Virus record (IMG/VR): IMGVR_UViG_3300020192_000008
Span: 1 to 64,000 of that record
Origin: a virus
Reading direction: 5' to 3' (one strand)
Length of the DNA stretch: 64,000 nt
How positions within the stretch are numbered: position 1 is the stretch's first letter; every line of letters starts with the position of its first letter. The position numbers were made by a program, and so were the translations under genes. Positions 7,321-54,628 of this stretch are shown piece after piece. Below the pieces are notes generated by a model. It was given only the letters and a program-made list of their open reading frames with translations. It made no database searches and was not told the origin of the DNA.

Positions 7321-7992
7321 ATGAAAGCTTTCACTGTTACAGAGCAAGCGACGAAGGGGATTCAGATTCCAGTTCTGTTGGGCAACGACAACGCCTTCTT
7401 CGGCATGCGTGTCGGGGGAGGGCTGTTGGGCGACCTGAAGAAGGCACTCGAGGTTGAACTCGAGATGGCCAACAAGGAGGATGAGCTCAAAGAGCTGACT
7501 CAGTACATCGATACTCTAGAGAGCATGCTCGGCGGCAGGGCTGTTGCTCCGATGCTGCTGCAGTCCTTGGACATGAACAAGGACAGGACGCACATCATGC
7601 GAGAGAACTCGGTGGGCAACAGGGACGCGCTCATCCACCTGGTCACAAAGACAGGGGATGGGGGCAAGATCAACCTGTATGCGAACACCGTTGATGAAGT
7701 TGAGGACGCAGATGGAGTGCTGCGCATCCCCCGACCGTTCCCTCCTCCAGGTGTGCAGCTCGTGGGGGAAACGGATACGGATACGGGTAAAGAGTGGCTC
7801 ATCAAGATGAGGCCACGCAGCAGCTTCAAGATCATCAGGTCAGGGGACCTGCAGGGTGCCCCACCCGAGCTTGTGGTGCTGTGGACGGGGAGGTGGCAGA
7901 GCCGTGTCTTCGAGAACTCTCGAAGCTTCCACGACCCGAGTGAATGGGGCCTGCGGGTCTTCCACCGCGACAGGGGGCCTCACCGCAGGTAA
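7321..7992 (+). CDS. hypothetical protein (early cassette)
   Basis: 223 aa, SD AGGAG; its TAA is the exact complement of the TTA ending the convergent gene. Confidence 0.8.
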   Translation: MKAFTVTEQATKGIQIPVLLGNDNAFFGMRVGGGLLGDLKKALEVELEMANKEDELKELTQYIDTLESMLGGRAVAPMLLQSLDMNKDRTHIMRENSVGNRDALIHLVTKTGDGGKINLYANTVDEVEDADGVLRIPRPFPPPGVQLVGETDTDTGKEWLIKMRPRSSFKIIRSGDLQGAPPELVVLWTGRWQSRVFENSRSFHDPSEWGLRVFHRDRGPHRR

Positions 7993-8202
7993 GGGGAGAG
8001 GGGCGTCAAGCCCCTCTTTCTTAGCCGCTATCTTGAGCTTGTAGTAGAGGTACGTCTTGATGATGGCGAACTCGCTGGGGGTGAGCGGCACCTTGTCTAC
8101 GGTGGTGAGGAACCACACCTCGAAGTCTCGGATGTCTTCGTCCACAAAGGCTTCGAGCTTATCTTCCGTAGGTTCACTGAGCTTGACTTCAACACGCTTC
8201 AT
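7990..8202 (-). CDS. hypothetical protein, 70 aa, TTA-terminated
   Basis: In-frame TTA at 7992-7990; extended -10 TGGTAACTT (8209-8217) lies 6 nt upstream. Confidence 0.65.
7996..8026 (+). terminator. hairpin + T-tract + TAGC terminator
   Basis: AGAGGGGC-GTCAA-GCCCCTCT followed by TTCTTAGC. Confidence 0.75.
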
Positions 8203-8232
8203 GCCGCGAAGTTACCACGAAGAAAGAGATCT

Positions 8233-8640
8233 ATGTTTCTGATAACTGACCTTCAGGAAAGCAACCTTGAGGACCTGGCAACCCTCGACGAAGAGGTCTT
8301 CGAGGACTTCTGCCTCCCCATCGGTACGCTGCGCAAGGAGTGGCGGGCAGGGGCTGTGCCCATGGTCGTCGACCTCGATGTAGACAAGCTAGCGGCCTAC
8401 GCTGTGTGCCGGTATGAAGACGGCATCGTCGACATCCTGCGTCTGGGTGTAGGCAAGAGGTACAGGGGGCATGGCCTTGCAAGGGGTCTGCTCGACGACA
8501 TTACCTGGAGGTACCCAGGCAAGCCTCAGATGCTCTGCGTCCGTAAGGAGAACGCCAGAGCACGGGGCATCTACCTCAAGGCAGGCTTTAGAATCGTGAG
8601 CCAGATAGACCTCTCCTGGGTGATGCGTCGCGACTGTTAG
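8233..8640 (+). CDS. GNAT family (RimI-like) N-acetyltransferase
   Basis: Motif A LGVGKRYRGHGLAR and motif B LCVRKENARARGIYLKAGF. Confidence 0.85.
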   Translation: MFLITDLQESNLEDLATLDEEVFEDFCLPIGTLRKEWRAGAVPMVVDLDVDKLAAYAVCRYEDGIVDILRLGVGKRYRGHGLARGLLDDITWRYPGKPQMLCVRKENARARGIYLKAGFRIVSQIDLSWVMRRDC

Positions 8641-8650
8641 ACTCAGCCCC

Positions 8651-9115
8651 ATGGTCCCAGAGAAGGCTTACCAGGCGTTCTTCAAGTTCGCGAAAGAACA
8701 GAAGGAGATCTATCGGCAGGTGGGCAACGTCCTACTTGATCGAGACATCCCCATCATCCCCCGCCTGCCCAGCGACAAGGGCAAGGCCCGAGCTCTGCTC
8801 GAGAACCACATCAGGGCAGCTGAGAGTGAGAACTGGACACACCCCCAGGTAGCCGTTCGCAAGCTCGACCTCAAGGGCATGGGCTTTGAGCCGACGCGAG
8901 CAGCCATCCCCCTGCCTGGGGAGAAATGGTTCACGCCTTCGTACCGTTCAGGGAAGATGCACGCCCACAAGATGGGGCCGTTCTACCTGGTGCATGAGGA
9001 TGAGTCAGCCCCCAAGGGCTTCGCTGACACCGTCTCGCACCTGATCAAAGACACGCCCAAACCCCTGCTGAAACGCATCTTCGAGAAGATCCCCCCGCCC
9101 GTGGTCAACCGGTGA
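8651..9115 (+). CDS. hypothetical protein (K-x-A motif, late-type promoter)
   Basis: AFFKFAKE motif; extended -10 TGTTAGACT 7 nt before ATG. Confidence 0.7.
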   Translation: MVPEKAYQAFFKFAKEQKEIYRQVGNVLLDRDIPIIPRLPSDKGKARALLENHIRAAESENWTHPQVAVRKLDLKGMGFEPTRAAIPLPGEKWFTPSYRSGKMHAHKMGPFYLVHEDESAPKGFADTVSHLIKDTPKPLLKRIFEKIPPPVVNR

Positions 9116-9134
9116 TAAGGAGCCATCATTTCGG

Positions 9135-9149
9135 GGATAAGAAGAGTGA
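9135..9149 (+). promoter_or_regulatory. ATAAG-N5-TG phage promoter-like motif
   Basis: GGATAAGAAGAGTGA. Confidence 0.65.
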
Positions 9150-9808
9150 TGGCAATCATTACCAAGCAGACCGGACTCGAGAAGTTGGCCCATGACATCC
9201 GTGAGGGTGCAGAGCTGAGGGTGTACCGTTCACCCGAGGAGAAGAAGAGGCTCGAGGAGAAGTTGCTGGAGATCTCTCAGGGTAAGCTCTTCGACATCAA
9301 CGAGGGGCTCTGGGTCATGCTGCACGATCTCGTCGCCAAGCACTCGCCCTCGGCAGCGAAGTACCTGAGGAGAGTCAGGCACGTGGATGACCGGCACACG
9401 TACGTCATCGTGATGCGTGGAGATTTCGGTGCGTTGGCTAGAGATGGAGGAGATCAAGACGCCCGCATGTTCATCAGCATGCATCCGGGGCTGCTTGAGG
9501 TGGCTGACGTCGTGGCTGGGAGCGGGCACTACACCGCGATGGTGAACCTCTCGATGGAGGAGGAGCTCGAAGAGCAGGTGGAGTTCCTAGTGTCTGACTT
9601 CGAGGAGCTCTGGCTTCTGCGAGGGCCTGTGTGCCCCAACCAAGATGAGGTCCTCGACACGGACCTGTTCTGGGTAGCGCAGACCTTGGAGCTCGAGCAC
9701 TCCTACTGCGACGTGTGCCGCGAGTGCACGAGAGGCGTGCAGAAGAGGCCGCTGCCATCCAAGGCAGACATGCTCCGCCTGCAGAAGGAAGACAAGAAGC
9801 GGAACTGA
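9149..9808 (+). CDS. hypothetical protein, C-terminal Cys cluster
   Basis: 219 aa, CDVCREC motif, followed by terminator. Confidence 0.75.
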   Translation: MAIITKQTGLEKLAHDIREGAELRVYRSPEEKKRLEEKLLEISQGKLFDINEGLWVMLHDLVAKHSPSAAKYLRRVRHVDDRHTYVIVMRGDFGALARDGGDQDARMFISMHPGLLEVADVVAGSGHYTAMVNLSMEEELEEQVEFLVSDFEELWLLRGPVCPNQDEVLDTDLFWVAQTLELEHSYCDVCRECTRGVQKRPLPSKADMLRLQKEDKKRN

Positions 9809-9812
9809 AGCT

Positions 9813-9847
9813 GAGCCCCCTTGCCGGGGGCTCTCTTCTTTTCTAGC
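9813..9847 (+). terminator. hairpin + T-tract + TAGC terminator
   Basis: GAGCCCCC-TTGCC-GGGGGCTC followed by TCTTCTTTTCTAGC. Confidence 0.8.
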
Positions 9848-9850
9848 TCC

Positions 9851-11182: not shown

Positions 11183-11185
11183 GAC

Positions 11186-12114: not shown

Positions 12115-12728
12115 GGCATTACCTTTGCGAAGTCCTTACCAGCGCCAACATCAACCTCAAAGCCACCAACAGGAGGGGCGCTGACCTTCCCCTTCTCCGG
12201 CATCACCGCCTTGTAGGACTTCTGCACATCCACCATCCCAGACCCAGGACCAAACGCCGCGCACAGGAAGAGGGCTGAGTCCTCGAGGATGGCGTCCCTG
12301 TAGAACGGCAGCCCGTAGACCAGGTCCTTGTGGAACTTCACCCCGCACGTATCGCTGTGCCACTCATGGAAGACCGACTTCGTCCCCGACACGAACGCTA
12401 CCGGGTAAAGCCCGTCATCCTGCATGGCCTGGAACATACGGGCCACCACGATAGAGGCGGAGCTCGCATCACCCTCAGGCACCTCGTCGATCTGCCCGTT
12501 ACGCAAGATCGCTGAGGGGGTGAGCGTCTTCATCTCGACGTCCACGTGCCGGCCGTCTTCCCCCGGCCGGACGTACCTCTTGTAAGAGAGCTGACCGCGG
12601 GAGTCGATGTTCAGGTTCATCAGCCGAGGAAGAACAAGAAGCTTCCGCAGCAGGACCATGAAGCCATCTACCCCAAGGTGCTTGGGCACCTGGATAGTCT
12701 CCTCGAACAGCTCTAGCTCTTGGTTCAT
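12111..12728 (-). CDS. hypothetical protein
   Basis: ATGA coupling, GC3 bias. Confidence 0.75.
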   Translation of the reverse strand: MNQELELFEETIQVPKHLGVDGFMVLLRKLLVLPRLMNLNIDSRGQLSYKRYVRPGEDGRHVDVEMKTLTPSAILRNGQIDEVPEGDASSASIVVARMFQAMQDDGLYPVAFVSGTKSVFHEWHSDTCGVKFHKDLVYGLPFYRDAILEDSALFLCAAFGPGSGMVDVQKSYKAVMPEKGKVSAPPVGGFEVDVGAGKDFAKVMP

Positions 12729-12910
12729 GCCTGCTCCACTCCTAGCTCTTCATCTGTCTTGGGCCGGGTCTCATCCTCTTTCCGTACGAGCTCGATGAAG
12801 AACATCTCAGCAAGCTTCGTGACGGTAAGGTTTCTGCTCTGAGCAATCTCAGTCACCCTCTTCTTGAGGTTTCGATCTACGCGCAGATGGATGCGTTCGT
12901 CCTTGGACAT
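12725..12910 (-). CDS. ribbon-helix-helix (CopG/Arc-like) DNA-binding protein
   Basis: RIHLRVD beta-strand followed by two helices (LKKRVTEIAQSRNLTVTKLAEMFF); 61 aa. Confidence 0.7.
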   Translation of the reverse strand: MSKDERIHLRVDRNLKKRVTEIAQSRNLTVTKLAEMFFIELVRKEDETRPKTDEELGVEQA

Positions 12911-13164
12911 AACAGCTCGAGATACTTGAGAGCGTCGATCTGCTCCCTCAGACCTTTGATCTTCGGGAACCTCTCCTCGAGGTAGTCGACGACGATGTCG
13001 TGGGCCTGCTGAAGACCCTCCTCGTTGATTGGCAGACCCTCGATCTTGGCTGCGAGCTGACCCTCCATCTCCTTCTTCAAGATCGTATTGATACCGATCC
13101 AGGTGGGGAGATGAAGCCAGTTGAGCTCGAGCGTACCGATGTCAGTCGGGACTACGGCGTGCAC
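12910..13164 (-). CDS. hypothetical protein, TTA-terminated
   Basis: In-frame TTA overlaps the next ATG (TTATG). Confidence 0.65.
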
Positions 13165-13819
13165 GGATCTTCTCTTTCGCCTGGTTCACCAGGTCCTTGA
13201 GGATGGCCTTCCCCTCTTCATGCAGAGACTGAAGGAAGAGAGAGGCGCGGTGCTTCACGAAGCTGACCCTCTGCTCGATGGTCGGTTCAGGCTCTGGAGC
13301 AGGAGGGGGCGGAGGTGGCATGACCTTGCCCATGAGCGCATCAAGCAGTTCTTGCTCGAGGCTAGAGAGGCTGTCTACGTGGTTGTCTCGCATGTACCTA
13401 TCGAACTCCCTCTGCAGCTCTCGCCTCACTTCAGGGGCACGCCGGTTGGAGCGGATGCCCGAGAGAGGGAACTCGACAACCTCATGCATGGGGTCATCCA
13501 TGTGGTCATCGAGGGGGATCTTCCATCCCTCAGGAGCCGTCAGGCAGTAGAGCGGGACCTTGCGCTCGGGCTTGGTGAACCTCTTGGGGCCGAACTTGCG
13601 CTCCTTGAGGATGCGCAGAGACTCGAGCACCACGTTCTCGACCTCGTGCTGGTCATCGAAGTTCAGAAGCAGTTGCCTGGCAGCGGCATCGAACTTCGTG
13701 AACTTCTCTTCGGTGGTGAGCTCAGGGGGGAGGGTAGTACCAGCAGCGGCGTCTTCATGCTCGAGGCGTTCTTTGAACGGCCTTGGCTTGGCTGTCTTAG
13801 AAGTAGGGAGCCTACCCAT
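13142..13819 (-). CDS. hypothetical protein with Pro-rich linker
   Basis: Its ATG overlaps the TTA ending GroES. Confidence 0.75.
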   Translation of the reverse strand: MGRLPTSKTAKPRPFKERLEHEDAAAGTTLPPELTTEEKFTKFDAAARQLLLNFDDQHEVENVVLESLRILKERKFGPKRFTKPERKVPLYCLTAPEGWKIPLDDHMDDPMHEVVEFPLSGIRSNRRAPEVRRELQREFDRYMRDNHVDSLSSLEQELLDALMGKVMPPPPPPAPEPEPTIEQRVSFVKHRASLFLQSLHEEGKAILKDLVNQAKEKIRARRSPD

Positions 13820-14130
13820 AAGACGTCCACCCGCACATCACCATCGTAGGCAAAGAGAATGTCGGCCACGCGGATGGTGGCGACGTCCTTGCCGTGCTCA
13901 TCGCTGAGCTCACGGATGGCCTTGATGGTCTGCTTGCCGGGGCGGTGCTCCTCGTGCCAGCGGATGTAGGCCACCTTCTCGCCGACCTTGAGGTCCTTGA
14001 CCTTGGGGCCGACGGCGATGACAACGCCCTTGCGAACGTTCGTCTCGTTGATGACGAACTCGATGATGGAGCTCTTCTGATCGAACTGCTCCACCTCTAC
14101 GAGAATCCAGTCGTGCAGGGGGCGGATCAT
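13819..14130 (-). CDS. groES: co-chaperonin GroES (103 aa when TTA is read as stop)
   Basis: MIRPLHDWILVE, GVVIAVGP, LKVGEKV and DILF motifs; the domain ends right at TTATG. Confidence 0.85.
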
Positions 14131-14131
14131 C

Positions 14132-19305: not shown

Positions 19306-19330
19306 CCGCAGGAAGGTAACACTACCTCTC

Positions 19331-21463: not shown

Positions 21464-21916
21464 GTGTCAGAGAAATCGATAATAGACCCTGAGAAGGCGA
21501 TCTGGGCGGAGCTCATCATCAAGGGGCAGATGGCTGCCGAAAGGGTACGGGAGATCTGGGCCAAGGAGCGGACCGTGGGGAACATGGTCATGTCCTGGGT
21601 GAGGGAGGTCATCTACGACCGCCAAGGCAAGCCCATCAACGACACGGTGGTTCTCGAGCTGCCGACAGGGGCCGTCTCGAAGAACATCCTTGCCCGCTTC
21701 GTGGCCAAGACCAAGGCGTTCGCCTTCCTCGTGGTGGAGCGGCGAGACAAGGAGGTCAGGCTCACCCTCGAGTCAGAGCACGGTTGCGTCATCTGGGTCA
21801 TGCCCATCGAACGCCACGGTGACATCTGGGTTCTCGGCAACGAGAAGGCAAAAAGAAACCCCACTGCCGGGGGGGAGGCAGTGGGGCTTCTCTGGAGACC
21901 GTCGCAGGCAAACTAA
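21464..21916 (+). CDS. hypothetical protein
   Basis: GC3 bias; start uncertain; its TAA is complementary to the TTA of the convergent gene. Confidence 0.65.
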   Translation: MSEKSIIDPEKAIWAELIIKGQMAAERVREIWAKERTVGNMVMSWVREVIYDRQGKPINDTVVLELPTGAVSKNILARFVAKTKAFAFLVVERRDKEVRLTLESEHGCVIWVMPIERHGDIWVLGNEKAKRNPTAGGEAVGLLWRPSQAN

Positions 21917-22537
21917 CGCCTGGGGCTGGCTCTCGTTGAAGAGCTGCTCGGCGCTCTTGAGACCGTTGGCCAGGGGCTTGTCCGTGGCGATGTGGGTCTT
22001 GGCGTCCTGGTTGACGATGCGCTTGAAGATGCCGATGGCGCCGGCGATCGTGGTCGCGGCATCCTGCAGGTCTTCAGAGACATCGACGCCGTTGTTGAGC
22101 GCCTGGATGGTGTTGAGCGCCTGGACGCCCTGCGAGACCGAGTTGATCGTGCGCTCGGCCATCTCAATGTCCGTGTACTCGCTCGAGGCGCTGAGCAGGG
22201 CAGCCTTGCGGCCCCCCTTGCCCTTCGGCTTGGCGGCAGGCGCCTTGGCCTTGGGAGCGGGCGTGGCCTTGACGGGCTTCTCCGCCTTCTCCTTCTTGGC
22301 CGTGGTCGTCTTGACCGTGGCCTTGGTGGCCTTGGCAGGCTTCGATGCGGCCATCTTCATCGGCGTGGCGGCCTTGGACGAACCGAAGTGTTTGTCGATC
22401 ACCCCGCGAGCATCGTTCTTGTCCTGGTCGGTAAGCGTCGACGCCTTGCCGACAGCACGGCGGGCGCCCGTGGCGTCCTTGTACTTGCCAGCCTTGAGTG
22501 CGGTCTTGAACGAGTCGAGTGAGAGCTTGTCGTACAT
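21914..22537 (-). CDS. histone H1-like Lys/Ala-rich DNA-binding protein, TTA-terminated (207 aa)
   Basis: KPAKATKA/KAKAPAAKPK tract; in-frame TTA at 21916-21914. Confidence 0.7.
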
Positions 22538-25572: not shown

Positions 25573-26280
25573 TAAGCCGTCGGTCTCGGTCGAGGCGTCG
25601 TACTCGTAGTAGAGCGCATAGTCCTTGGCACCATCGAGGGCTGACGCCGGCGAGTAGCTGCCGTTGGGCGGGCTGGTCGCCGCACTGACGAAGGTACCCG
25701 TGGTGACGACCGCGCCGACGGCGATCTCCTTGATGGGCGCGGAAAGACCGGCGCGGGGCTTGAGCTTCTTCCCCAGACCGAGGACTGAACCATAGCCGAT
25801 GGCCACGGTAGCAGCAGTACCCTCAGCTGCCGCGAAGACAACCGAAGTCACGGTCTTGAAGGCCTTCACGCCCTCCGAGATGGTAGCCGTCTGCGCGACC
25901 GTGATGGTCTCGGTCTGGGCATTGCCATTGACATCCGTGCCCGTAACGAGCGCACTCGCCGGGGCGTCAGCCGGGGTCACACCAGCTGTGGTGAGCGTGA
26001 CATTGCGAGGGAAGGCAGCGAGAGCCGTCACGCCGCCGGCGAGGAACGAGCTCACCGTCAGAGGGGCAACTGTGGTCGCAGCAGCAACCTCGAGGCCAGC
26101 AGCTGCAGCGGCACCCGGGCCCGTGAACTCCTCGACCACGACGGCCGCAAGAGGCGTGAGCGACTTGAGGATGTCGGCGCGCAGGTTGTGAATGGCACCG
26201 GACAGACCCGGGCCGGGTTTGATGAGGTGGACGAACTTCTCGACCATCGTGCTGAACAGACCTGAACCAATAGATGACAT
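25573..26280 (-). CDS. putative virion structural/decoration protein (235 aa), TTA-terminated
   Basis: Thr/Ala/Val-rich (PRNVTLT, VTGTDVNGNAQTETI); own ATG at 26280; in-frame TTA four codons before TAG. Confidence 0.7.
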
Positions 26281-26316: not shown

Positions 26317-27507
26317 TAACTGGGGCTGTCCGAACTCGTTGATGCCCCTGGCTGGGCCTACTGCCCCGTTGCCATAGATCGGGCTCTCGTCGGCCTCTTG
26401 CCCCATGACCCCGAGGCCCTTCTTCAGAGCCCGGTACCCGCCGTAAACACCCAGCCCACCAGCAACCATAGCAGGCAGCTTCCCCTTCCACTTGCCGTCT
26501 GCGAGACCTGTTCCTTGCCAAGCCTTCTCAGCTTTGGCAAGCATATCTTCTTCAGGAACTGCCGCTGCTTCTTGGGCCCCTGCCTGATGTTGAGCTGCTG
26601 GCTGAGCGGCAGGCTGGGGGGCCGGTGGTTGAACCTGCCCTGCCTGTTGAGGGGCAACAGACGGCTGTGCCTGAGGAGGATGTACCGTGCCTGCCGGAGC
26701 TTGAGCTGGTGCTGCCTGCTGCTGAGCAGGGGGCTGAACAGTCGCTGCAGGAGAAGCCGCCGGAGCAGGTGCTCCTTGAGCCGGAGCTGCTTGAGGAGCT
26801 GCCTGCTGGGGGGCATGGGCAGGTTCTGCCTGAGGGGGGTGAACCGTACCTGCTGCTTGGGGTGCTGGCTGAGACTGCGGAGCAGCTGGCTCCCTGTAAG
26901 GGGACGCGTTCTTAGGGGGATGAACAACCGCAGGTGCGGGCTTGGGAATGGGGGCCTGACCCATGCCCGCACGCTCGATGTTCGTACCAGCGCGATCGAC
27001 AGACTGGTTGACTCCAGAGGCTGCGTTGTTCAGATGACCTGTTACCGCATCGGTCTTCTGCTCAACGTAGTTCTTGGCAGCATCAACCTTCTGACCAGCG
27101 TAGTTCTTGGCAGCATCAACTTTGCCCGACATGAAGGCCTTGGCTTCATCGGTCTTGCGACTGAGAAGACCTGCGCCACTCTGACCTGCGGCAGTCGCCT
27201 TGATCTTGATGGTGGTGGGAAGAGCTGCCGCGCCACGACCCACACTACCGAGAAGCCTTCCAGGAGCAGAAAGAACAGCGCCGCCCAACCCCTTCGCTGC
27301 CGCACCCATCTGCTTGAACGTCGCGGCATCCTTCTCCATGTAGAAGATGTCTGCGCCGATCTGCTCAGCAAGCTTCACAGCCAGGTCTTCCTGAGGAGCA
27401 AGGATGAGATCGGCCACCTGTACAGAGATAGGTCTAGCATCAGCCAGCTTCTCTCGGAGAAGGTTGCCGGTGCCGTAGGCATCACTGAGCGAGAGAGTCG
27501 GGTTCAT
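26317..27507 (-). CDS. putative virion internal protein (396 aa, Pro/Gln/Ala-rich), TTA-terminated
   Basis: K-x-A motifs, KVDAAKNY repeats; in-frame TTA at 26319-26317 followed by a 36-nt intergenic-like spacer. Confidence 0.7.
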
Positions 27508-41232: not shown

Positions 41233-41604
41233 TAAGCCGATGGTTCCGTGAAGGAACCGAATGAAGTCGGACGCCCCTTCGGGCGCCTGCGTGTCGTTGT
41301 TACCGCCGACCAGATGGCCGATCTTCTCGCCCATGTTCGGGCCCACGAGATCAACCGCCGCAGCGATCTTCTCGAGCTTGCCCTCCTCGGCCGCCTTCTC
41401 CATCTGGGCGACTAGGCTCTCGTAGGGGACATCCGACTGGATGCCCTTCTCGTGCATCGCCGAAGCGACCTTCTCGGCCTCTTCGTGACGCATGCGGGCC
41501 TGGGCTTCCTTCTTCCAGAAGTCCCTTTCCCCGGCGAGTTGGGTGATCGCGGAAGCGCTCTTGGTGAGGAGGTCCTGGACCTGCGCGCTGCTCAGCTTGT
41601 TCAT
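41233..41604 (-). CDS. putative scaffold-related protein (123 aa), TTA-terminated
   Basis: ATG 41604 after GGGGAG; in-frame TTA at 41235-41233, upstream of the next gene's SD. Confidence 0.65.
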
Positions 41605-44093: not shown

Positions 44094-45743
44094 TTACAGA
44101 AGGCCCCCGTAGATGTCAGCGCCCAACTCGTCCCAGAAAGCGTCCCGCAGATAGTGGACCGTGAGGGGAGTGAAGAGCTGATCAACTGGTGCCGACGCCA
44201 GCTTACTGAACTCACTACCCCTTGGGGCAGATGCGTTCAGAAGTCCTTGTGCGCCGCTCACCAGATCCATGAGAGTTGTTCGGTACCCGTTGTAGGCAGC
44301 TCCTATCTTACGCAGCACTTCTGAGGGATGGGAAGAAGAGGCCCTCTTCTCACCCCCGTCGCTCTTCTTCATCACAAGTACACGATGCTCAATCGCAGGC
44401 GCGAGAGCAGAGCGTGATTCCATGAGAGGGAGAAGAAGTCTTGCAAGTGAAGGAAGGAAGGAAGCGTGGCCGAGAGACATACTCTCAGTATCTTTCGATC
44501 TGGGGAAGACGATGTTCCGACGATCAAAGTCGTCAGCCATGTCTCTCCGTCCGATCTGAATCAAGACGATACGCTGAAACTCCCTGGGACGAAGAACGAT
44601 GCCCAAACCACCAGAAGTAGACAGGGAGCTGGGCAGGTCATGTTTCCCGAGTGCATCAAGCACATCATCAGGCAAATCTTCTTCTTCTCTCGACAGAGTG
44701 GCCACCGCCTTGCCAGCGAACTGGCTCGGCACAATGTCCTTGATGATCTCACTCTTCTTGAGCTTCGCGTCCTTGTATTGGAACGCTTCCTTGAAGATTG
44801 ACTCGTTGAGAGAAGCCGTCTTTTCCCCAACGGTCATCTCGTCGTAGCCGAGCTTCTCCGCCTCATAGGCAGAAGAGCCGAACGAATAGACGCGCCCCTC
44901 AGACGCGATCTTCATCATCGTCTTGGCTGTCTTGTCAGCCCCGATGAAGACGAAAGAGATGTCGAAGAACTTCGGGAAGTCGTTGTAGACGTACACCTTC
45001 CGGCCATCGGCCAGAATCTTGTTCATCTGATTGCGAGCGTGCTCGCAATAGTCCTTCCGAGTGATCGACACGCCCCGGATAGGGGTCTTCTTATGGATGG
45101 CGAGGATGGCCTGGCCCGGAGACGCGTGCTTCTTCGGGTCGAAGGTGGCAGCCGCCTCGTGGTACCGCTTCCAATCGAGGCAGATGGAGCACGTATCGAA
45201 GGGCACCTTGCAGCCCATCGAGACATCCGGAAACATGCCCTGGCTGAGCTTGTCCCAGACCTGCGTGCCCCCGTACTCCTGGCACTTGAGCTTATCGACC
45301 CGAGTAACGAGCTCGACGCGCTTGAGCCTCGGGTGCCAGACAGCCAGCTCCACCTCACCGAAGGCGCGGCCTGCGTCCTTGTTGCGATGGTGGGCGTAGG
45401 GGTGGGCTGAATAGAAGGTCGGGTAGCCGTACGCCCAATCCTTCGCCTTGATCTTGTCGAGCAAAGGGTTGCCCGTCCAATCATCAGGGCGATGGATCAG
45501 GGCAGCTTCTGGGAAGTGATCGCCGTTGACATTGGAGCCGAAGAACTCTCCGGCCCCCATGGCATTGACGAGGTTGTACGCTGCATCATTCCGGGGCCTG
45601 AGCGACTCGATATACTTGACGACGTCAGGAAGAAGTGTGGCTGATGCGGTCTTCTCGAAGTACGCATCAGACGCTTTGTTGAAGAGCGGGATGACCGTTG
45701 GGCCAGTCTCGCTCTCACCCCAGTATGTGCAGAGCTTGTACAT
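44094..45743 (-). CDS. prohead (capsid maturation) protease
   Basis: NVNGDHF, YAHH, DVSMGC and FFDISFV motifs typical of assemblin/HK97-type head proteases; position upstream of the capsid gene. Confidence 0.75.
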   Translation of the reverse strand: MYKLCTYWGESETGPTVIPLFNKASDAYFEKTASATLLPDVVKYIESLRPRNDAAYNLVNAMGAGEFFGSNVNGDHFPEAALIHRPDDWTGNPLLDKIKAKDWAYGYPTFYSAHPYAHHRNKDAGRAFGEVELAVWHPRLKRVELVTRVDKLKCQEYGGTQVWDKLSQGMFPDVSMGCKVPFDTCSICLDWKRYHEAAATFDPKKHASPGQAILAIHKKTPIRGVSITRKDYCEHARNQMNKILADGRKVYVYNDFPKFFDISFVFIGADKTAKTMMKIASEGRVYSFGSSAYEAEKLGYDEMTVGEKTASLNESIFKEAFQYKDAKLKKSEIIKDIVPSQFAGKAVATLSREEEDLPDDVLDALGKHDLPSSLSTSGGLGIVLRPREFQRIVLIQIGRRDMADDFDRRNIVFPRSKDTESMSLGHASFLPSLARLLLPLMESRSALAPAIEHRVLVMKKSDGGEKRASSSHPSEVLRKIGAAYNGYRTTLMDLVSGAQGLLNASAPRGSEFSKLASAPVDQLFTPLTVHYLRDAFWDELGADIYGGLL

Positions 45744-46282
45744 AAGGGGCCCTGACCGCCCTTGTTGTTGCGGCGCTGGTAGGGCTTGGCGACGACCTTG
45801 GGCTTGAGCGACTCGGCGAACGAGTTACCTGCGTGCTCACCACCCCTACGCCACGAATCAGCCATGGGGGACTTGAACTTGTCGGAGGCCGACAGGCTCT
45901 CGGTGAGGATGCCACCGGCTGACATGGGGTTGTCGGCCATGCGGCGCAGATAGGTCCCGGCGACGATCGGGTCCTTGGCGAAGTTCGGATTCATGTTCCG
46001 AAGCGACGAGTACATCTGGTTGAACATCTTCGGGTCGCGCTCGTGATGCTCATGCAGGTCCGGGTTCAGTTCCAAGATCTGCTTGAAGTCGTGCGACTTG
46101 GTGGCCGCATCGTAGATCTTGCCAGCGGCCATGCCGGCGCCGGCGAAGGCAACTCCGGCAGCAGCCATCCCAAGACCCTGCGTCATCGCATGGCCGAAGC
46201 CCTTGGCAGCTTCACCACCGAAGGCGACCTTCTCCTGGGGCTCGCCGTACTGGGCGTAGAAGTCATCGAGGGGGTTAGACAT
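45743..46282 (-). CDS. hypothetical virion protein (179 aa), TTA-terminated
   Basis: EKVAF motif; in-frame TTA overlaps the protease ATG (TTATG). Confidence 0.7.
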
Positions 46283-47478: not shown

Positions 47479-47514
47479 TCACTGCTCCTTCAAGAATCCG
47501 TTACAAGAAGTACC

Positions 47515-48210
47515 ATGGATAAAAAACTCATGGGAAGCTGGCCCCGGCTGGTCTCCGTGCTGGAAGCAGCCGAGATGCTTTCGGTTTCTGTCGATCAAGT
47601 CCATCGCTGGAACCGGGATGGTCTACTAGAGGCTGAGTACCCAGAGGGAAGAAGAGGGGGGAAGTACTTCCAGACGGAAGACATCCAGACCCTCATAGAA
47701 GCTCGGGCCAGCAAGACGCTCTCTGACCATGATGTGAAGATTCTAGCCCTTCAGTCTCTGGTCTCCTCCAAGAGGGCAGAACGAAAACTCGATGAGCTGC
47801 TTGGGATGCTCGGTGTTTCGGACGTGAAGCTCGGTACCTCGAGGGAGGAGGTCTTGGCTTTCTTCGTCGAGGTAGAGGACGAGATCAAGGAGGGTGAGCC
47901 GCTCCTACCCGAGGAGGCGATCGGCTGGGCCAAGCGGATGCTGGGCATCACCGAGGAGTACCTGGAGCTAGTGAAGGAGCACACGTTCATGCTCGAGCCC
48001 TGGGTCCCGTACATGCAGCTCTCCAAGAAGCTGCACGACAAGTTCCCAGCAGGGCAGGCAGGGGCCTACCTCTCTCACGCCATCCGTAATCTTCGGCACA
48101 CGGCGTACTTCTACGTGCGTCGGGCGGATGGGGTGAGAGAGGCGACGAAGCGCTTTCCCGAGGGTGGCGTGACGAGCCAGCTCCTCGGGATCATGTTTCC
48201 GAAGAGCTAA
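47515..48210 (+). CDS. MerR/Xis-type helix-turn-helix DNA-binding protein
   Basis: VSVLEAAEMLSVSVDQVHRWNRDGLL...KYFQTEDI. Confidence 0.75.
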   Translation: MDKKLMGSWPRLVSVLEAAEMLSVSVDQVHRWNRDGLLEAEYPEGRRGGKYFQTEDIQTLIEARASKTLSDHDVKILALQSLVSSKRAERKLDELLGMLGVSDVKLGTSREEVLAFFVEVEDEIKEGEPLLPEEAIGWAKRMLGITEEYLELVKEHTFMLEPWVPYMQLSKKLHDKFPAGQAGAYLSHAIRNLRHTAYFYVRRADGVREATKRFPEGGVTSQLLGIMFPKS

Positions 48211-51108
48211 CCCTTGGTTCGTTGGCCCCGAGTAACCGCCGAGGTTGGGGCCACCGCTCCGAGCGTTCTCTTTCTTCGGGGTGATGATGTCCGGCCTGGG
48301 GTGGATGATCATCGAGCCAACGAAGCAGTAGATGATAGAGTGCAACGCATCATCAGGCCGATCGGGCCTGTGCTGGTACTGGATCATGTGAAGAGACTGG
48401 TTGTACTCTGTGAAGATGTTCAGGATGTCTTGCCCGAACGGCTCACGGAACTCTTCCCACCTGGGGAACATGATCTGCTTGCGCTTGATGGCCGTGAAGA
48501 CATCGCTCACGACTTCCGTCTTGTGCACCTTCCAACGCTGCAGCTTACCGTCCCACTCGACCTTCTTCTTGTTACGGGCCATGTACTGGAAGCGGTGCAC
48601 GCGCTGGGTGCCGAAGCGACGGATCAAGTAGGCGTTGTTGTTGAAGCCACCGCCGTAGTCGCACCCGATGATGCGGACGTTGTACGCATGCAGGATGCGC
48701 TTGATCTTCTCGAGCTGGATCTCAGGGTCCGTGTCTTCACCCGTGAAGCGGTGGATGAAGAAGATCTTGAACTTCATCCCGTCGTAGTAGCCGAGACTCA
48801 TGACCGTGTAGCTGTTCTCGCCCGTGTTACCTTGGTACGCGATGCTTCCGTTACGCTCTGTGACGATGTACCCCGAAGGCACGGCGCAGCAGTACACCTT
48901 GCCCGCATAGGGGACGTGCTTCACCGCCGTGGAGGGGGTGTTGAACTGGTAGTCTCGGCCCTCCGACCACAAGGCTCTCCAGCGCGTCTTCCGGTTCCCC
49001 TCCGCAGGCTTGTGCAGCTTCACGGAGCACCGAAGACCGAGCTTTATGCAGATCTCCTGGAAGTCCTCGCACAGCCCTTTTGACGTCGAATAGAAGGCCC
49101 CTCCTGTGCAGCCCTCCCGAGGGTCCGTGTAACCGTCTCCGTCTACCAGGGCCTGAAACAAGATCCGAAGCTGCCTTTGGCCGAGGCCGAGGAACTCCCG
49201 TGGGATACGCTTCTCGTCCCCTTCGACCCCTACGTTCTGGGCGTACCACGCCCAGTACTGCTTGCCGTAAATGGTCCAGTTGACGTCCCCAGTCTTTGGG
49301 TTCGGGAACGCCTTGAACGAGACCCCCACCCGGTCGAGAGACGCCTGCATCTTGAGGTAGGTCTCGTGGTTGACCGTCTCCCTCTGCGACATCTTGAGGC
49401 AGGACGGGCGGCCCCCATCAAAGCAGACCCCGCCCTCTGTCACGAGATAGCCGAGTAGCTCCAACCAGTCGTCCATGGGGACGGTCTTGTCCTCAGAGCC
49501 CTTGTACCCAGGGCTCGTCGGCAGCCCCGGCAGCGTGAAGGCCTGCTTCTCCTCTCCTTGCCAGTCGACGTAGCCCACGAACTTGACGTTGCCGCCCCGT
49601 TCTACGAGTTCGCCCGCCGACTCGGTGAGCCACCGCTCTCCCTGGGAAGTCCCGACACGCATGCGGTGCGTATGGGTGATCATCAGATCGAGCCCCCCCT
49701 TGGTCTCGAAGTGTAGAAGTGGCTGGTCCCAGTCGCGTACCGTACGAACCTTCGGAGCCACGAAGGTCATCGCACGCGTTTCTGGATCCCACTGGGCTAC
49801 CTTGTCTTCGTCGGTGAGATCACAGAAGTACTTGAAGCCAGACTGCGTAAGAATGCGTGTCTTGTCATCGTGACAGCCCCAGTCGATGCCAGCGAAGATG
49901 TTGCCGGCGGTAGCCGTCTTGCGGATCTTCTCGAGGGCCGTGGGGTGCATCGTCAGCTTGGGGTCGCATGACTCCTTCAGCTGGCCCATGGTGATGGGCC
50001 GGAGGCCTGAGTCGTAAGACATCCCCAAGACTTCGTTGTAGAACTTGTCGCGGGGGTACCGCTCGTAGTCGAGCAGGATTTCCTCCCACGACCGCCAAGG
50101 CACCATCAGCTGGGGGATGCGGTAGCTCTCGAAGACCCCGTCACGGACCTGGTTGATCCACTTCGAGTCCTTGTGCATGGGGTCGATCTTCCCCCCGCAC
50201 TTCTCGCAGATGAGGCTCTTCTTACCGATGTTCTTCTCGCAGAGGATGTTCCAGTGCCGGCCAGCACCGCCACCAACGGAGGACCCGCAGTGGTCGCACG
50301 GCACCATCCACTCACCCTGCGTCGACATCGGGCGGCCCTTGGCCACGCCTGACCGGTAGAACTCGATGGGGTTGTCGAGCCCTTTGGGTGTGCCGGCGTA
50401 GATGAAGCGCTTGAACTTCTCCGGAGCGTGGCTTGTGCACTGCTCGATGACGGGGATGTTGTCGGCGAGAATGTCTTGGAGCTCGTCGAGGGTGAGCAGC
50501 CAGGCTGGGATGCCTCGGGTACGGTCGGCGTTGAGGAACGCATACCTCAAGGTGATCTTCGCCCGGTTGACGAACTGCTTCTCGAAGATGTTCTGCGACA
50601 GCATGGTCGTCGTGAACGTCTTCAAGACCTGGCTCGTCTCGATGGGCTCCTTGATACGGTCGACCGAGAAGACCTTCGTCTGCGTGGCTGACGGGCTCAC
50701 GTACAGCGTCTTGTACGCCGGCACGACGCACGAGTACGAGAGCATGATGTTGCCGATCATGGTCGACTTCTCGACCTGCCGGCCACAGAACAGGAGCACG
50801 CGCCTGGCTGGGGTGTTGTAGGGGCGGCGCATGTGCCGACGCCCCTCAAACGTGAAGTTCTCGTACCCCATACCGTCCTGCCGAGGCATCCGGAAGGCGA
50901 ACTCGGTGAACTGGCTGGGCAGGACAGCGGGGATCTTGACCGCTGCCCTGCGCTTCTCCTCTATCTCCCAGAAGTCCTCGAAGGGCTCTGGCTCAGGGAG
51001 CCAGGGCTTGCCGTTGTGCATCCTTCGGAGTTCTTCGTCTGTGAACTCTTCAGGCTCGAGGTCCTCTTCAGAAGGGACCGTGACGGGGTCAGGCTGGAAG
51101 CTGCTCAC
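48208..51108 (-). CDS. terminase large subunit (lambda GpA-like), intein-containing, TTA-terminated (966-aa precursor)
   Basis: Walker A GRQVEKST, Walker B LTLDE, coupling motif AGTP, CxxC pair, FYNEVLG, nuclease motifs GIDWG and DDALHS. Confidence 0.88.
48826..49875 (-). mobile_element. intein (350 aa) with LAGLIDADG homing endonuclease
   Basis: Starts CHDDKTRILT after GIDWG; block B THTH; LLGYLVTEGG and FQALVDGDG; ends VYCCAVP..YIVTERNG...QGN followed by Thr. Confidence 0.9.
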
Positions 51109-51527
51109 AGGCTCTTGATCTTCGCTTCGATGGCTTCGTCGAGCTTCTCGAGGAACTTGTCAGCGTAAGCATCGAGGTCGAGGATGTGCCCGAAGCCATC
51201 AGCCTGAAACCACCAAGAGTCGACTTCTTGCGTGTAGGCCGCACGCAGCCGTGGGTAGGCTGCGTTGAAGAACTCCATGGACGCATCCGAGAGCACCTCG
51301 GGGAAGAGGTACCTCCAGTAGTACCCCACCCTCGCGCCCAGATGCTGGATGTCTTTCACCTGGTAGAAGTGGAAGATAAGGCTTCCCTCGTGGATGCAGA
51401 CTTCTCCGATGAAGGTCGTGTAGTCCTCGACCTTACGGAAGGTCTTCGCCCTCACCCCCTGCTCCTCCTCCATCGAGAGGCGACCCTTCGCTTCCGTCTC
51501 CGTCATCTGCTCCGGCTGGTAGTTCAT
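51105..51527 (-). CDS. hypothetical protein
   Basis: SD GAGGA; GTGA overlap with the terminase gene. Confidence 0.7.
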   Translation of the reverse strand: MNYQPEQMTETEAKGRLSMEEEQGVRAKTFRKVEDYTTFIGEVCIHEGSLIFHFYQVKDIQHLGARVGYYWRYLFPEVLSDASMEFFNAAYPRLRAAYTQEVDSWWFQADGFGHILDLDAYADKFLEKLDEAIEAKIKSL

Positions 51528-52443
51528 GGTGTTCCTCGAGGAGGTTCATATCCATCGTGTGGTTGCCCTGCGTCACGTCATCGACGAAGGGCAGCTCAGC
51601 CGTGTCGTTACGAAGGGCGATGGAAGCAAGCTGCTCCCTGAGATCCTCGTCTGGCTTGACGATGGCTTCCAACGTGTCGGTGATCTTGGCGACACCGTTG
51701 GTGTAGTTGATGTACTTTTCCGAATCCTTCGGACCGTTGTTGTACGCCGACTCGAACGCTCTGAGGGCACCGATGTACCTGCCTGCTTCAAGAATCTTGG
51801 CCAAGTCGAGCTTGGAAGGCATCGTCCCAAGACGCATCTGGGACAGCAGGGCTGATAGAGGCGAGAAGGGCAGGTCAGCTGCAGTCCTTCTGGCATCTGT
51901 GTAGAACGCGCGCTTGAGCGAGTCGTGCTGGCTGCGAATGCCCTCTTCAGTGTGGCTGGCTACCTGGTCTACCTCGAACTGCAGAAGAGCTCGCATCTCG
52001 GTAGAGTCGAGCAGGTCCACATCCCAGAAGAAGAACTTGTAGCGGGCTACCTCCTGCTCGGTGCAGGCGAAGCCCTTCTGCCTGGTGAGGGCGTGGGCGA
52101 TAGCAGCAGGCGGGGCCGATGAGAGAATCATCGCCTCGGTGAACTCTTTGATCCTCGGCGACTTGAGGATGCCCATGGCACCCATCACCGACTGGTCTGG
52201 ATGGAAGAGCGTGTAGAGCCCGTTCTTCAGTAGCCACCGCACAGACAAGGGATGGTTCTTGTCGTGCGGGAAGAACTGAGGAGGAGGCTTGAGCTCTCCA
52301 CGCAGACGATCGAGGTACCAGAAGCCCAGACTGGAGATCTGAGCGAACTGGCACATCACGATGATCTGATCGTTCGTGTACTTCTTGCCATGGCAGAGCA
52401 GGTACTTGAGGTACCTCTCTGCCGGCGAGCGCCTGATGATCAC
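51433..52443 (-). CDS. hypothetical protein (small-terminase candidate by position)
   Basis: 336 aa, two genes upstream of TerL. Confidence 0.65.
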   Translation of the reverse strand: MIIRRSPAERYLKYLLCHGKKYTNDQIIVMCQFAQISSLGFWYLDRLRGELKPPPQFFPHDKNHPLSVRWLLKNGLYTLFHPDQSVMGAMGILKSPRIKEFTEAMILSSAPPAAIAHALTRQKGFACTEQEVARYKFFFWDVDLLDSTEMRALLQFEVDQVASHTEEGIRSQHDSLKRAFYTDARRTAADLPFSPLSALLSQMRLGTMPSKLDLAKILEAGRYIGALRAFESAYNNGPKDSEKYINYTNGVAKITDTLEAIVKPDEDLREQLASIALRNDTAELPFVDDVTQGNHTMDMNLLEEHHELPAGADDGDGSEGSPLDGGGAGGEGEDLP

Positions 52444-52450
52444 CTAAGGC

Positions 52451-54628
52451 TAACGCCTGCTGGAACGCCAGCGTCTTGAGACCCTCGATGACATCCTCGA
52501 GGTACTTCACGCACTTCTCGAGAGGGCCCTGGGGGATTTTCGAGAGCCCGAGCCTCGACGACATCAGCAGCTCACAGAGCTTCGCCTGCGTGCTGTTGAT
52601 CTCCGGCAGGTAGGAGACGAACGTGTGGATGTTCTCGGGGTTCACGAAGCCGATGGAGAGGATCGTGTCGACCGAGGTGGGGTCGGGGATGAAGGCCGCC
52701 TCCTTGAAGAGGTTGCGCTTGAGGTCGAAGGCGGGGCTCGAAGCGAGCTTCTCCTGGGACTTCCTGCGCGAGGCCATCTTCACCGACTCGGCAGGCTGGA
52801 TGTGCCGGCCCACCCGGACGTCGACCGGCATGCCATGGGCAATCGCCTGGGCAAGCTTCGTCTGGGCGTAGCCGAGGTCTGTACCCAGGCCACCCAACAG
52901 GAAGAGCGAGTCGTCGAACGACAGGAAGTGCTTCTCGTCAGACGCCAGCTTGTCGATGGGGAAGCCCTCGAACGAGAAGCTGTTGACGCCCCCCGCCCTC
53001 ACGGTCACCGAAGCAAGCTTCCGCTGGGCGTGCGCCACCTTGTTCCCGCCCTCAGGGGCGCTCACCAGGACAACGCTTTCGGCCTTGCCCATGCCCATCC
53101 ACTTGTAGTCCTTGGGCAGGAGGAACGTACCCTCATCAGCCTGGGTGGGCTTCTGGATGTTGGGCTGCAGAGAGACTGTGCACTCGCGACCATCGTAGGT
53201 CTCGACGTGCAGCTTCTGCTCCCCGTCCGTGACCTTCCCCTTGATGGTCATGGGGATGGTCGCCTCTGTCTCGTCACCACTCTGACGAACGAACACGCCG
53301 GTGCCCGTGGGGGAACCGAACATGAGCTCGCCGTTGGTGCTCTGCAGGCTACCGGCGATCTCCGGCTGCACAGCCGCCGCCGACCCGTTCGTGAACAGGG
53401 CGATGGGCAGAACTGTGCCGTCGAGGTCAGTCAGGTTGGGGAATACGAGCCCCATCATCTCGGTGCCCTCCTCGTTCTGCACCTTGTACGTGCCGAACTC
53501 GGTGATGGGCTTGAGGTCTGCCAGCGGGGCGCCTTCACCCACGGCATCGTCAGTGACGGTGACCGAGCCATGCTCATCGGCATCCTGGGCGAGCTTCACC
53601 CCGAAGTGCTTGATGATGTCGCCTCGGCTGACGGAGTGAGCCTCCTTGACCTGCCAGTACTTGTGGTTCGCCTCCTTGACCCGGTAGCCCACGTTCTCCT
53701 TCGAGACCTGGATGACCGAGGGGCGGATGGCGCTCTCCATCGAGGAAGCCACCTTCTCGCTGGTCACCTGGTTGGTGTTCCAGATCTTGTTGATGGAGGG
53801 GAGGGTGGCGTGGGCGTTCTTCACGTACGCCTGTTGAACCCCAACGTCCTTCATCTCGTGGGCGAAGGAAGTAAGGTCGGAGCTCAGTGCTGTCGGAAGG
53901 ATGGCCTCGAGCAGAGAGGCTGACTTCTCCACACCAGTCAGGTCATGACCCGAGGTCTTGAGGTCAGACTCGTTCGGGTCCTTCTTGAAGCCCTTGAGCT
54001 TCTTGGCATCGACACCAAGCACCTTCGACAGGCGCTCTGCGAACTGCGCCTTGTTCTTGTCTTCGGCCGTCTTGGTCTCAACGTGCAGCTGCTCACGCAG
54101 GTAGTACTCGAGATCTGAGCTGGTCTTGCCCATCATCCCGCCGGCGCCACCCATGCCGCTGCCATCCCGGTGGGGCGGGTAGATCTGACTGGCCATCGAC
54201 GTGTCACCTGGCGTCTTGCTGGTGACATCGAAGGTCTGTGGGCGGAAGAGGGCTTCCTTCAGACGCCGCTCGGTGAGGGGAAGAACCTTCGAGTCACCAG
54301 TAACGATGAGGTCGAGGGGCTGAAGCTTCTTGTCCTTGACCACCACCGGGATGCGAACCGACTTCACGCCCACGGCGTCCTTGGCCTGGTCGCTTGCGCC
54401 TTGCTGCAGCTCGGTCTTGTTGGAGATCTCAATGTGGCCGAATGCAAAGCCACGCTCACCATCGATTCGATCCATCACCGTGTGAGGCTCGAAGTCCGAG
54501 ATGAAGGGGATCTGCTTGTACGCTTCCTGCAAGATCTCCTGCGACCACTGGTTCGGGTCTTCAGGAAGAACAGTCTCAGCGGCCGTCTTCTGGATCGGCA
54601 GGATGGAGTCGAGGTAGAGGTTCGTCAT
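52451..54628 (-). CDS. putative virion protein (725 aa), TTA-terminated
   Basis: K-x-A motifs; tandem in-frame TTA GCC TTA immediately before the next GTG. Confidence 0.7.

Follow-up and report, generated by a model that had tools for sequence, protein, structure and literature searches.

In-frame TTA triplets at gene ends point to UUA as a probable fourth stop codon in a high-GC tailed phage

Gene ends at TTA in the analysed window

The window analysed here comprises 64,000 nucleotides, positions 1 to 64,000 of the 107-kb contig IMGVR_UViG_3300020192_000008 (G000) of an uncultured high-GC tailed phage. A DNA similarity search of G000 against 50,697 deposited phages returned no match, and searching viral and metagenome collections with the two ends of the contig gave no exact hit. 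Comparisons were made using a set of about 100 related contigs; five relatives (G001-G005) are referred to individually.

An earlier note on this DNA had listed ten minus-strand genes with an in-frame TTA where the protein should end, and all ten sites are genuine by coordinate and frame: each reads TAA on the plus strand and TTA on the minus strand, where it lies in the reading frame of an ORF (Table 1). At the 725-aa gene, a second TTA, absent from that list, follows two codons past the first. A possible eleventh site is doubtful, as it closes a weak ORF of low coding score.

Table 1. Minus-strand genes of the window ending at TTA, with their surroundings and the ends of their orthologues.
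TTA position	Strand	Gene ended	Layout	Orthologue ends
7990..7992	-	70-aa gene (7990..8202)	Triplet is the TAA stop of convergent plus-strand gene 7321..7992	G003, 2 aa off, TAG
12910..12912	-	84-aa gene (12910..13164)	TTATG overlap with ATG of gene 12725..12910	G003, 1 aa off, TGA
13819..13821	-	GroES-like gene (13819..14130, 103 aa)	TTATG overlap with gene 13142..13819	G005, identical position (TGA); G003, 1 aa later
21914..21916	-	207-aa gene (21914..22537)	Triplet is the TAA stop of convergent plus-strand gene ending 21916	No orthologue reaches the C-terminus
25573..25575	-	235-aa gene (25573..26280)		G001, G003, G004 and G005, within 2-4 aa, TAG or TAA
26317..26319	-	396-aa gene (26317..27507)	Next gene starts 36 nt downstream	Fast-evolving, few orthologues to compare
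41233..41235	-	Gene 58, 123-aa head-module gene (41233..41604)	Shine-Dalgarno, then conserved start MSTVQRVNFEP in a different frame	Standard stop at identical position in 47 loci; TTA also in G001
45743..45745	-	179-aa gene (45743..46282)	TTATG overlap with gene 44094..45743	Stop at most about 8 aa from the TTA in aligned subjects
48208..48210	-	Intein-containing TerL (48208..51108, 966 aa)	Triplet is the TAA stop of convergent HTH/TerS-like plus-strand gene 47515..48210	TAG, TGA or TAA at exact position in 45 loci; TTA also in G002
52451-52453 and 52445-52447	-	725-aa gene (52451..54628)	TTA GCC TTA; gene 51433..52443 begins 7 nt beyond the pair	Identical position: G001 TGA, G002 TGA, G003 TAA
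1462..1464 (possible)	-	Weak 50-aa ORF (1462..1614)		No orthologues

In the GroES-like protein, the Cpn10 domain occupies residues 2-66, and the standard code (table 11) would lengthen the product to 155 aa. At 26317, table 11 fuses two genes into a 648-aa ORF. Gene 58 ends in GGC TTA in G000 vs GGC TGA in its nearest relatives, and the plus-strand gene convergent with TerL has excisionase/TerS-like matches. A tail that seemed conserved beyond the TTA at 45743 proved to be out-of-frame similarity of the downstream gene, each subject having a nearby stop.

The surroundings of the TTA ends are those of ordinary stops. Five TTATG couplings correspond to the familiar TGATG arrangement, other ends precede short spacers to the next Shine-Dalgarno sequence, as ordinary stops also do, and three triplets are shared as TAA on one strand and TTA on the other; since TTA is the reverse complement of TAA, two convergent genes can be closed by a single triplet. 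The same complementarity could raise the concern of a strand mix-up at the three sites coinciding with plus-strand TAA stops; a frame mistake and an assembly or sequencing error were considered as well. However, the minus-strand genes that contain the triplets in frame have ends supported by homology, plus-strand genes outside the window behave alike, and TTA ends occur in IMG/VR contigs of other metagenomes, too. Moreover, independently assembled contigs from other metagenome samples span five of the TTA sites with zero differences there; one of them comes from a variant strain that differs by 15 SNPs per 20 kb, yet has the TTAs unchanged. Hence, an artefact has a negligible probability.

TTA across the contig

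Genes were called on the whole G000 contig using our own codon-usage gene caller, with table 11 and then again with TTA as a stop. Table 11 yields 115 genes (32,914 codons). They contain 16 in-frame TTAs, each at a relative ORF position of at least 0.61, and 94 % are in the last fifth of the ORF vs 20-42 % for other rare codons (permutation p about 1e-5 for the clustering at 3' ends). Plus-strand genes beyond the window behave likewise. When TTA is treated as a stop, 120 genes are called, coverage increases, overlap decreases, and long overlaps and antisense run-throughs vanish. TTA then closes 19 of the 120 genes (about 16 %), early and late genes alike, with TGA, TAG and TAA closing the other 101. 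As a control, setting any other rare codon as a stop makes coverage fall.

Within the bodies of these 120 genes (33,395 codons), TTA occurs 125 times out of frame and never in frame, and accounts for 0 of 2,905 Leu codons. G004, a relative of equal GC content, has 0.93 in-frame TTAs per 1000 codons in a crude ORF census, a rate that would predict about 31 TTAs inside the genes of G000. None of the domain and orthologue alignments in G000 passes a TTA without a stop. The 2126-aa RNAP and the 1229-aa tape measure are encoded by uninterrupted table-11 genes free of TTA, and the single TTA of the table-11 ORF of TerL is codon 967 of 1046. A stop-to-sense recoding of TAG or TGA as an amino acid was rejected for G000, as its long genes are open under table 11 and it has no tRNAs.

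Downstream of the TTAs, the sequence ceases to look like coding DNA. The table-11 tails reach 251 codons and either lie antisense to real genes or overlap the next gene in another frame, and their composition (GC3 0.58, codon score -0.30) equals that of the sequence after true stops (0.60, -0.31) as compared to 0.82 and +0.25 in gene bodies. Back-up standard stops are not enriched downstream of TTA. The nearest base, on the other hand, bears on a programmed +1 shift at a slow TTA onto TAG or TAA, by which the standard stop would be the true terminator. Such a shift is compatible with 13 of the 32 TTA ends of G000, G001 and G002, which read TTA-G and give TAG in the +1 frame, but the remaining 19 yield Tyr without a +1 stop (12 TTA-C, i.e. 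TAC, and 7 TTA-T, i.e. TAT), and none reads TTAA. G or C is expected after an AT-rich codon in 60 % GC DNA, and TAA stops show the same preference. We therefore consider the shift highly improbable.

Orthologue ends agree with the shorter proteins. Among the 19 TTA-ended genes of G000, 14 have orthologue ends within 0-10 aa, and 5 are without orthologue support. Agreement within 3 and 10 aa is 58 % and 91 % for genes cut at TTA, as compared to 59 % and 85 % for standard-stop genes and 14 % and 40 % for the table-11 read-through.

The claims of the earlier note thus stand the comparison with the whole contig. It had reported no TTA inside confidently called genes and had proposed tabulating in-frame TTAs genome-wide, where all lie at gene ends on both strands of the 107-kb contig; re-calling genes, which improved coding density and reduced overlaps; and aligning homologues, whose ends coincide with the TTA (e.g. 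TerL and gene 58). Internal TTA codons and conserved extensions, which it had named as contrary outcomes, were sought, and neither is present in G000. TAA, TAG and TGA, as it had stated, still act as stops. The sense-to-stop code with four stops that it had put forward is supported by position, orthologue ends and gene model.

Taken together, we propose that UUA is not Leu in G000 but very probably terminates translation as a fourth stop beside UGA, UAG and UAA. As inferred from the sequence, the ribosome would release the finished chain at UUA.

A second lineage and the reader of UUA

The pattern recurs in two further partial genomes, G001 and G002, which form one clade separate from G000 (SH-aLRT 96). 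In G002, all 7 in-frame TTAs are at a relative position of at least 0.69 and 9 genes are closed by TTA, while in G001 TTA closes 4 genes and its use as a stop adds 2.8 kb of coverage. G002 has standard stops at TTA positions of G000, and vice versa, as interchangeable stops predict. UUA as a stop is nevertheless no family-wide code, being seen in G000 and one other branch: in most family members TTA encodes conserved Leu residues, and closely related phages would therefore differ in code. No closer or more complete relatives with TTA ends were found, and just two small proteins (98069..98718), of no informative family, are confined to the TTA-end phages.

Under the standard code, TTA would remain Leu and the stops would have been lost (TGA or TAA to TTA), with the C-terminal tails being made and tolerated. 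TTA is one transversion from TGA and also from TAA, as at the end of gene 58; L041, a relative reading TTA as Leu, has TTA at its TerL stop with a tail of just 4 codons; and the candidate host bin described below decodes TTA. Stop loss would, however, yield varied sense codons, whereas every site here is TTA and the genome has no in-frame TTA other than at ends. The long tails of non-coding composition, and the repetition of the pattern at different genes in a second lineage, likewise argue against this explanation, which we regard as very improbable.

How UUA might have acquired its new meaning is suggested by the family itself. Codon capture is the likely route, in which GC pressure would have purged TTA in high-GC members, such as G003, where 2 remain in 56,296 codons; with TTA already removed, the codon would therefore be free for a new meaning.

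A factor that would read UUA was sought in the phage. No tRNA or tmRNA gene is present in the window or the whole G000 contig, tRNA-Leu(UAA) is absent among the tRNAs of relatives, and no RF-1 or PCRF domain was detected in G000 or G001-G005. Practically all G000 proteins were scanned with Pfam and PHROGs, and none matched a translation factor, a peptidyl-tRNA hydrolase or a tRNA nuclease. A GNAT acetyltransferase (8233..8640) was considered as a tRNA-blocking candidate and dropped, being also present in relatives with TTA as Leu.

On the host side, the labels of metagenome-assembled genomes conflict (Acidobacteriota, Myxococcota, Chloroflexota, even an archaeon). The only candidate host bin is G006, a Myxococcota bin holding a G001-type phage contig, a membership that makes for a weak link. 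G006 uses the standard code: TTA is a sense codon within the AlaRS, RNase R, Dus and FlgH domains, and the bin encodes tRNA-Leu(UAA) as well as an RF1 and an RF2 of canonical type (RISPFD and PVT loops). In a prfB survey of 401 Myxococcota genomes, Ser-Pro-Phe was found in all 150 among the matches listed, and 111 of the 401 genomes were without a match.

By analogy with organelles, UUA may be read in a host without a UUA-decoding tRNA by a release factor of widened specificity, to which we give somewhat less than an even chance. An unrecognised phage-encoded factor acting within a standard-code host is conceivable, if rather doubtful. It is unlikely, finally, that the phage imposes the switch through a putative factor that removes or blocks tRNA-Leu(UAA), permitting termination at UUA in a host such as G006 where UUA is Leu.

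Alternatively, UUA could be unassigned, the host lacking or withholding tRNA-Leu(UAA), so that ribosomes stall with the completed chain still bound, which rescue factors or drop-off, and not a release factor specific for UUA, would slowly free. The near absence of TTA from high-GC family members and the lack of a recognisable release factor in the phage are compatible with such stalling, and in Streptomyces, likewise of high GC, UUA goes undecoded under some conditions and induces pausing (PMC10732093). However, a stall on TTATG would mask the downstream start, yet TTATG serves like TGATG, and slow rescue would be needed for 16 % of genes, including TerL and polymerase-module genes. Stalls within an mRNA also commonly end in tmRNA tagging and degradation. 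We consider this alternative improbable, and return to UUA as a probable stop codon.

Significance and comparison with known systems

If true, this represents a sense-to-stop code change outside organelles, in a bacterial virus and perhaps in its host, too; in the phage-imposed version, a virus would itself encode the switch of a codon from sense to stop. The family, with members reading TTA as Leu, members without TTA and members with TTA as a stop, would offer a test series for codon capture, and poses the question of how chains would be released at UUA when no dedicated factor can be recognised. For annotation, standard callers would get roughly every sixth gene of such phages wrong, producing junk C-terminal tails, fusions, missed genes and false overlaps in TerL, GroES and replication genes of public databases. 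Code-prediction tools that infer amino-acid meanings alone are blind to a sense-to-stop change.

Ex-sense codons at gene ends have partial precedents. In Micrococcus luteus, unassigned codons stall translation and are not known to form regular gene ends, and in vertebrate mitochondria AGA and AGG end two genes, with a dedicated factor. Common to these systems are the emptying of a codon by GC pressure, probable for G000, after which the codon ceases to specify an amino acid, and the presence of rare ex-sense codons at gene ends.

In Streptomyces and its bldA-dependent UUA codons, as well as in phage phiHau3, GC is likewise high, and UUA is nearly absent and may stay undecoded; UUA also lies near the next start codon, as in the adpA uORFs 5-6 nt before main-ORF starts, and a phage terminase gene is concerned (PMC10732093). 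In the phiHau3 terminase gene, UUA triggers bypassing, the codon being inside the coding sequence and followed by 7-10 nt inserts, which have to be skipped for the same protein to continue (PMC10732093). In G000, in contrast, the protein is complete at TTA, with no need for translation to resume, and 19 genes are affected instead of one. Bypassing of this type was rejected, as orthologues are complete at TTA and a spacer with the next gene, or a convergent gene, lies beyond.

As in phages with recoded stops (TAG to Gln, TGA to Trp; bioRxiv 10.1101/2021.08.26.457843), the code of one lineage differs from that of related phages, the distribution within the family is patchy and standard gene callers are misled. 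The direction in G000 is opposite, from sense to stop, without a suppressor tRNA or release factor, and TTA closes early as well as late genes of G000, with no restriction to late ones.

Our literature search for UUA as a stop found no bacterial or phage case in the papers covered, the published ones found being mitochondrial and plastidic. The earlier note correctly named Thraustochytrium, whose mitochondria, as those of labyrinthuleans, use UUA as a stop (NCBI table 23), and the literature adds peDinoflagellate plastids, with UUA and UCA as stops, and the green-algal mitochondria of Marsupiomonadales and Pseudoscourfieldia, with UUA and UUG (PMC12574857). These organelles have their own release factors with specific changes, i.e. 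an RF2 Ser204 substitution or an altered mtRF1a (PMC12574857). G000 differs in being a tailed phage without a recognisable release factor gene, with close relatives that keep TTA as Leu, but it would share with the organelles the same codon and the same new meaning.

In-frame TTA codons and gene ends

The phage sequence (G000) is a single IMG/VR viral contig of 107,272 bp, of which the window covers the first 64 kb, with 60 % GC, a GC3 of ~0.8 and a CheckV completeness of ~58 %. Gene calls were made with a purpose-built codon-usage gene caller, yielding 115 genes and 32,914 codons under the standard bacterial code (table 11, TTA=Leu). TTA is the rarest codon in these calls, and all 16 in-frame occurrences are located at a relative ORF position of at least 0.61, 94 % of them within the last fifth, compared to 20-42 % for other rare codons such as ATA, TGT, AGA, CTA and AAT (permutation p ~1e-5 for the 3'-end placement of TTA). 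At each of the ten sites of the earlier note, the plus-strand TAA is indeed a minus-strand TTA, and because each of these triplets falls within the reading frame of a minus-strand ORF, a strand mix-up is excluded. The reported lack of TTA in gene bodies holds across the whole contig, with no in-frame case, 60 and 65 TTA trinucleotides in the wrong frames, and none of the 2,905 Leu codons being TTA. Plus-strand genes outside the window display the pattern too.

The gene models respond in agreement with TTA as an additional stop, i.e. 120 genes are called, base coverage increases from 98,719 to 100,219 and overlap falls, while turning any of eight other rare codons into a stop costs 3-10 kb of coverage and leaves many gaps. 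Gene ends in this model are distributed as 19 TTA, 70 TGA, 16 TAA and 15 TAG. Four table-11 gaps (7993-8232, 13820-14131, 45744-46281 and 47479-47967) are filled by genes that fit table 11 only through long overlaps. At five TTATG junctions (12910, 13819, 45743, 78430 and 79398) the A of TTA is the A of the next ATG, the same geometry as in the TGATG/TAATG coupling that is frequent in this phage, and three convergent gene pairs are closed by one shared TAA/TTA triplet (7990, 21914 and 48208). Reading TTA as Leu would, as previously described, produce antisense tails through convergent genes; the large terminase subunit TerL, for instance, would extend 240 nt through its plus-strand partner.

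The sequence following TTA is non-coding. Its in-frame continuation has a GC3 of 0.58 and a mean codon score of -0.30, indistinguishable from what follows genuine stops when the frame is extended (0.60 and -0.31); the final 50 codons within gene bodies have 0.82 and +0.25. Nor are the TTA ends an artefact: the phage was found in five microbial-mat metagenome runs, and independent assemblies from other samples show no change at 41233, 45743, 48208, 52445 and 52451, one of these samples containing a variant strain that differs by 15 SNPs and one indel over 20 kb. In run X2, the phage is represented by a contig of 155 kb.

Orthologue ends and distribution among relatives

Within IMG/VR, the major capsid protein (MCP) identified 292 relatives, and metagenome contigs yielded 374; complete genomes of the family span 185-195 kb. 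Homologues terminate where the TTA stands. TerL orthologues at 45 loci carry TAG, TGA or TAA exactly after the residue preceding the TTA, and orthologues of gene 58, a 123-aa head-module gene, have a standard stop at the equivalent position at 47 loci, the nearest relatives ending in GGC TGA where G000 has GGC TTA. Downstream of the gene 58 stop, a ~38-nt spacer with a Shine-Dalgarno sequence is followed by the conserved start MSTVQRVNFEP of the next gene in another frame. With TTA as the stop, the predicted C-termini are PTNQG for TerL and HGTIG for gene 58. The GroES-like protein comprises 103 aa up to the TTA and 155 aa using table 11, and its orthologue in the relative G005 ends at the TTA position. 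Overall, orthologues end within 0-10 residues for 14 of the 19 TTA-ended genes. As a control, gene ends were compared to orthologue ends for all genes at cut-offs of 3 and 10 aa. Standard-stop genes match in 59 and 85 % of comparisons, respectively, and TTA-ended genes cut at TTA in 58 and 91 %, whereas for table-11 read-through of these genes the values drop to 14 and 40 %, the median offset then being 25 aa. A conserved extension at 45743, suggested by alignments passing through the TTA, was rejected, as the subject stops within ~8 residues in every such case; the similarity beyond reflects the conserved gene downstream, which lies in a different frame.

In most relatives TTA is an ordinary codon. 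Leu is by far the commonest orthologue residue aligned with their internal TTAs (pooled counts L 2589, followed by F 370 and M 341), with single sites reaching 33/33, 51/54 and 34/35 Leu, and none of 21 further contigs examined has TTA gene ends. In high-GC family members TTA has nearly disappeared (G003 has 2 in 56,296 codons, one inside the RNA polymerase). The relative G004, equal in GC to G000, has 0.93 TTA per 1000 codons in a crude ORF census, a rate that predicts ~31 internal TTAs in G000, where there are 0. TTA ends recur in a clade of G002 (L039), L047, G001 (L043/L044) and L109 (SH-aLRT 96, MCP tree), while G000 is placed outside this clade in a poorly resolved part of the tree. In the partial genome G002 all seven in-frame TTAs lie at a relative position of at least 0.69, nine genes end in TTA, and the terminal triplet of TerL is again shared with a convergent gene. 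G001, also partial, has four TTA-ended genes and gains 2.8 kb of coverage with TTA as stop. Several TTA sites of G000 are standard stops in G002 and vice versa, as expected from free turnover among equivalent stop codons.

Probable termination at UUA, candidate host and further features

Based on these data, which establish where the proteins end and from which we infer chain release at UUA, UUA very probably ends translation of the TTA-ended genes, supporting the earlier interpretation and extending its observations beyond the window. The base following TTA in G000, G001 and G002 is G in 13 cases, C in 12, T in 7 (each of these in a TTATG) and A in none, which rules out +1 slippage onto TAG or TAA as a general explanation. 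The affected genes include structural, chaperone and replication genes (a DnaB-like helicase, a primase and their neighbour), which argues against a late-infection switch.

A search for RF-1/PCRF domains was negative in G000, the other two TTA-end contigs and three complete relatives with TTA=Leu. Comparison of essentially all proteins of G000 with Pfam and PHROGs identified no translation-related family, and a tRNA search found no tRNA genes in the contig. G000 contains 78 of the 99 family core genes, so that only accessory regions lie outside the sampled part. The GNAT-family acetyltransferase at 8233-8640 (+) is unlikely to be a code-change factor, being common to TTA=Leu relatives.

A G001-type contig had been assigned to a Myxococcota bin (G006). 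This bin carries tRNA-Leu(TAA), canonical release factor loops (RF2 RISPFD, RF1 PVT) and TTA within single conserved domains of several proteins, among them AlaRS, RNase R, Dus and FlgH. With this standard code, either G006 is not the host or the code change is imposed by the phage. A prfB survey of 401 Myxococcota genomes returned Ser-Pro-Phe in 150/150 matches listed, with 111 genomes lacking a match. On G006 contig C32 (L299-L315), TTA clearly serves as a sense codon, and yet 41 % of its in-frame occurrences fall in the last ORF fifth, compared to ~21 % for other rare codons.

Features of the phage and its relatives
Feature	Position	Strand	Remarks
TerL with intein	48208-51108	-	LAGLIDADG_3 at residues 648-719
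Plus-strand partner of TerL	47515..48210	+	real excisionase/TerS-like homology
Single-chain RNA polymerase-like protein, 2126 aa	56492-62872	-	beta + beta' RNA polymerase PHROG families
240-aa protein, GmrSD N-terminal-like domain	L003:8870-9592 (= G000:96870-97592)	-	G000-only
Three adjacent tRNA-like genes	L085:1501-1732 (= G001:20272-20502)		abnormal anticodon arms

The LAGLIDADG_3 domain of TerL is positioned between the GpA ATPase (101-315) and RNaseH-like nuclease (781-884) domains, and two more Intein_splicing matches are found beyond the window among replication genes. The RNA polymerase-like protein retains 55-58 % identity across the family. One of 24 ORFs in 16137-37696 encodes a cysteine peptidase of the papain family (Peptidase_C1, E 6e-18), an unusual gene for a phage, and a dNMP kinase is also among them. 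The GmrSD-like gene adjoins two small genes (98069-98718) common only to G000 and G002. The tRNA-like genes of G001 are also present on L109; the first, 71 nt long with an encoded CCA, has a GAAA tetraloop replacing the 7-nt anticodon loop. In G003 (L084), one tRNA carries an 'anticodon' of four bases.

Relation to known code changes

UUA as stop is known in labyrinthulean mitochondria, confirming the previously noted Thraustochytrium precedent (table 23), as well as in plastids of peDinoflagellates and in the mitochondria of two green-algal lineages, all of these cases being linked to changes in RF2 (Ser204) or mtRF1a; the plastid case was termed the first sense-to-stop change outside mitochondria in a 2025 paper (PMC12574857). 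No bacterial or phage sense-to-stop case was found in the literature searched. In bacteria, the nearest parallels are the hungry UUA codon of Streptomyces and the bypass that UUA triggers in the terminase gene of phiHau3; there, UUA is located within genes and translation resumes afterwards (PMC10732093). Phage recoding known so far converts stop to sense (10.1101/2021.08.26.457843), while the change proposed for G000 proceeds in the opposite direction, from sense to stop.
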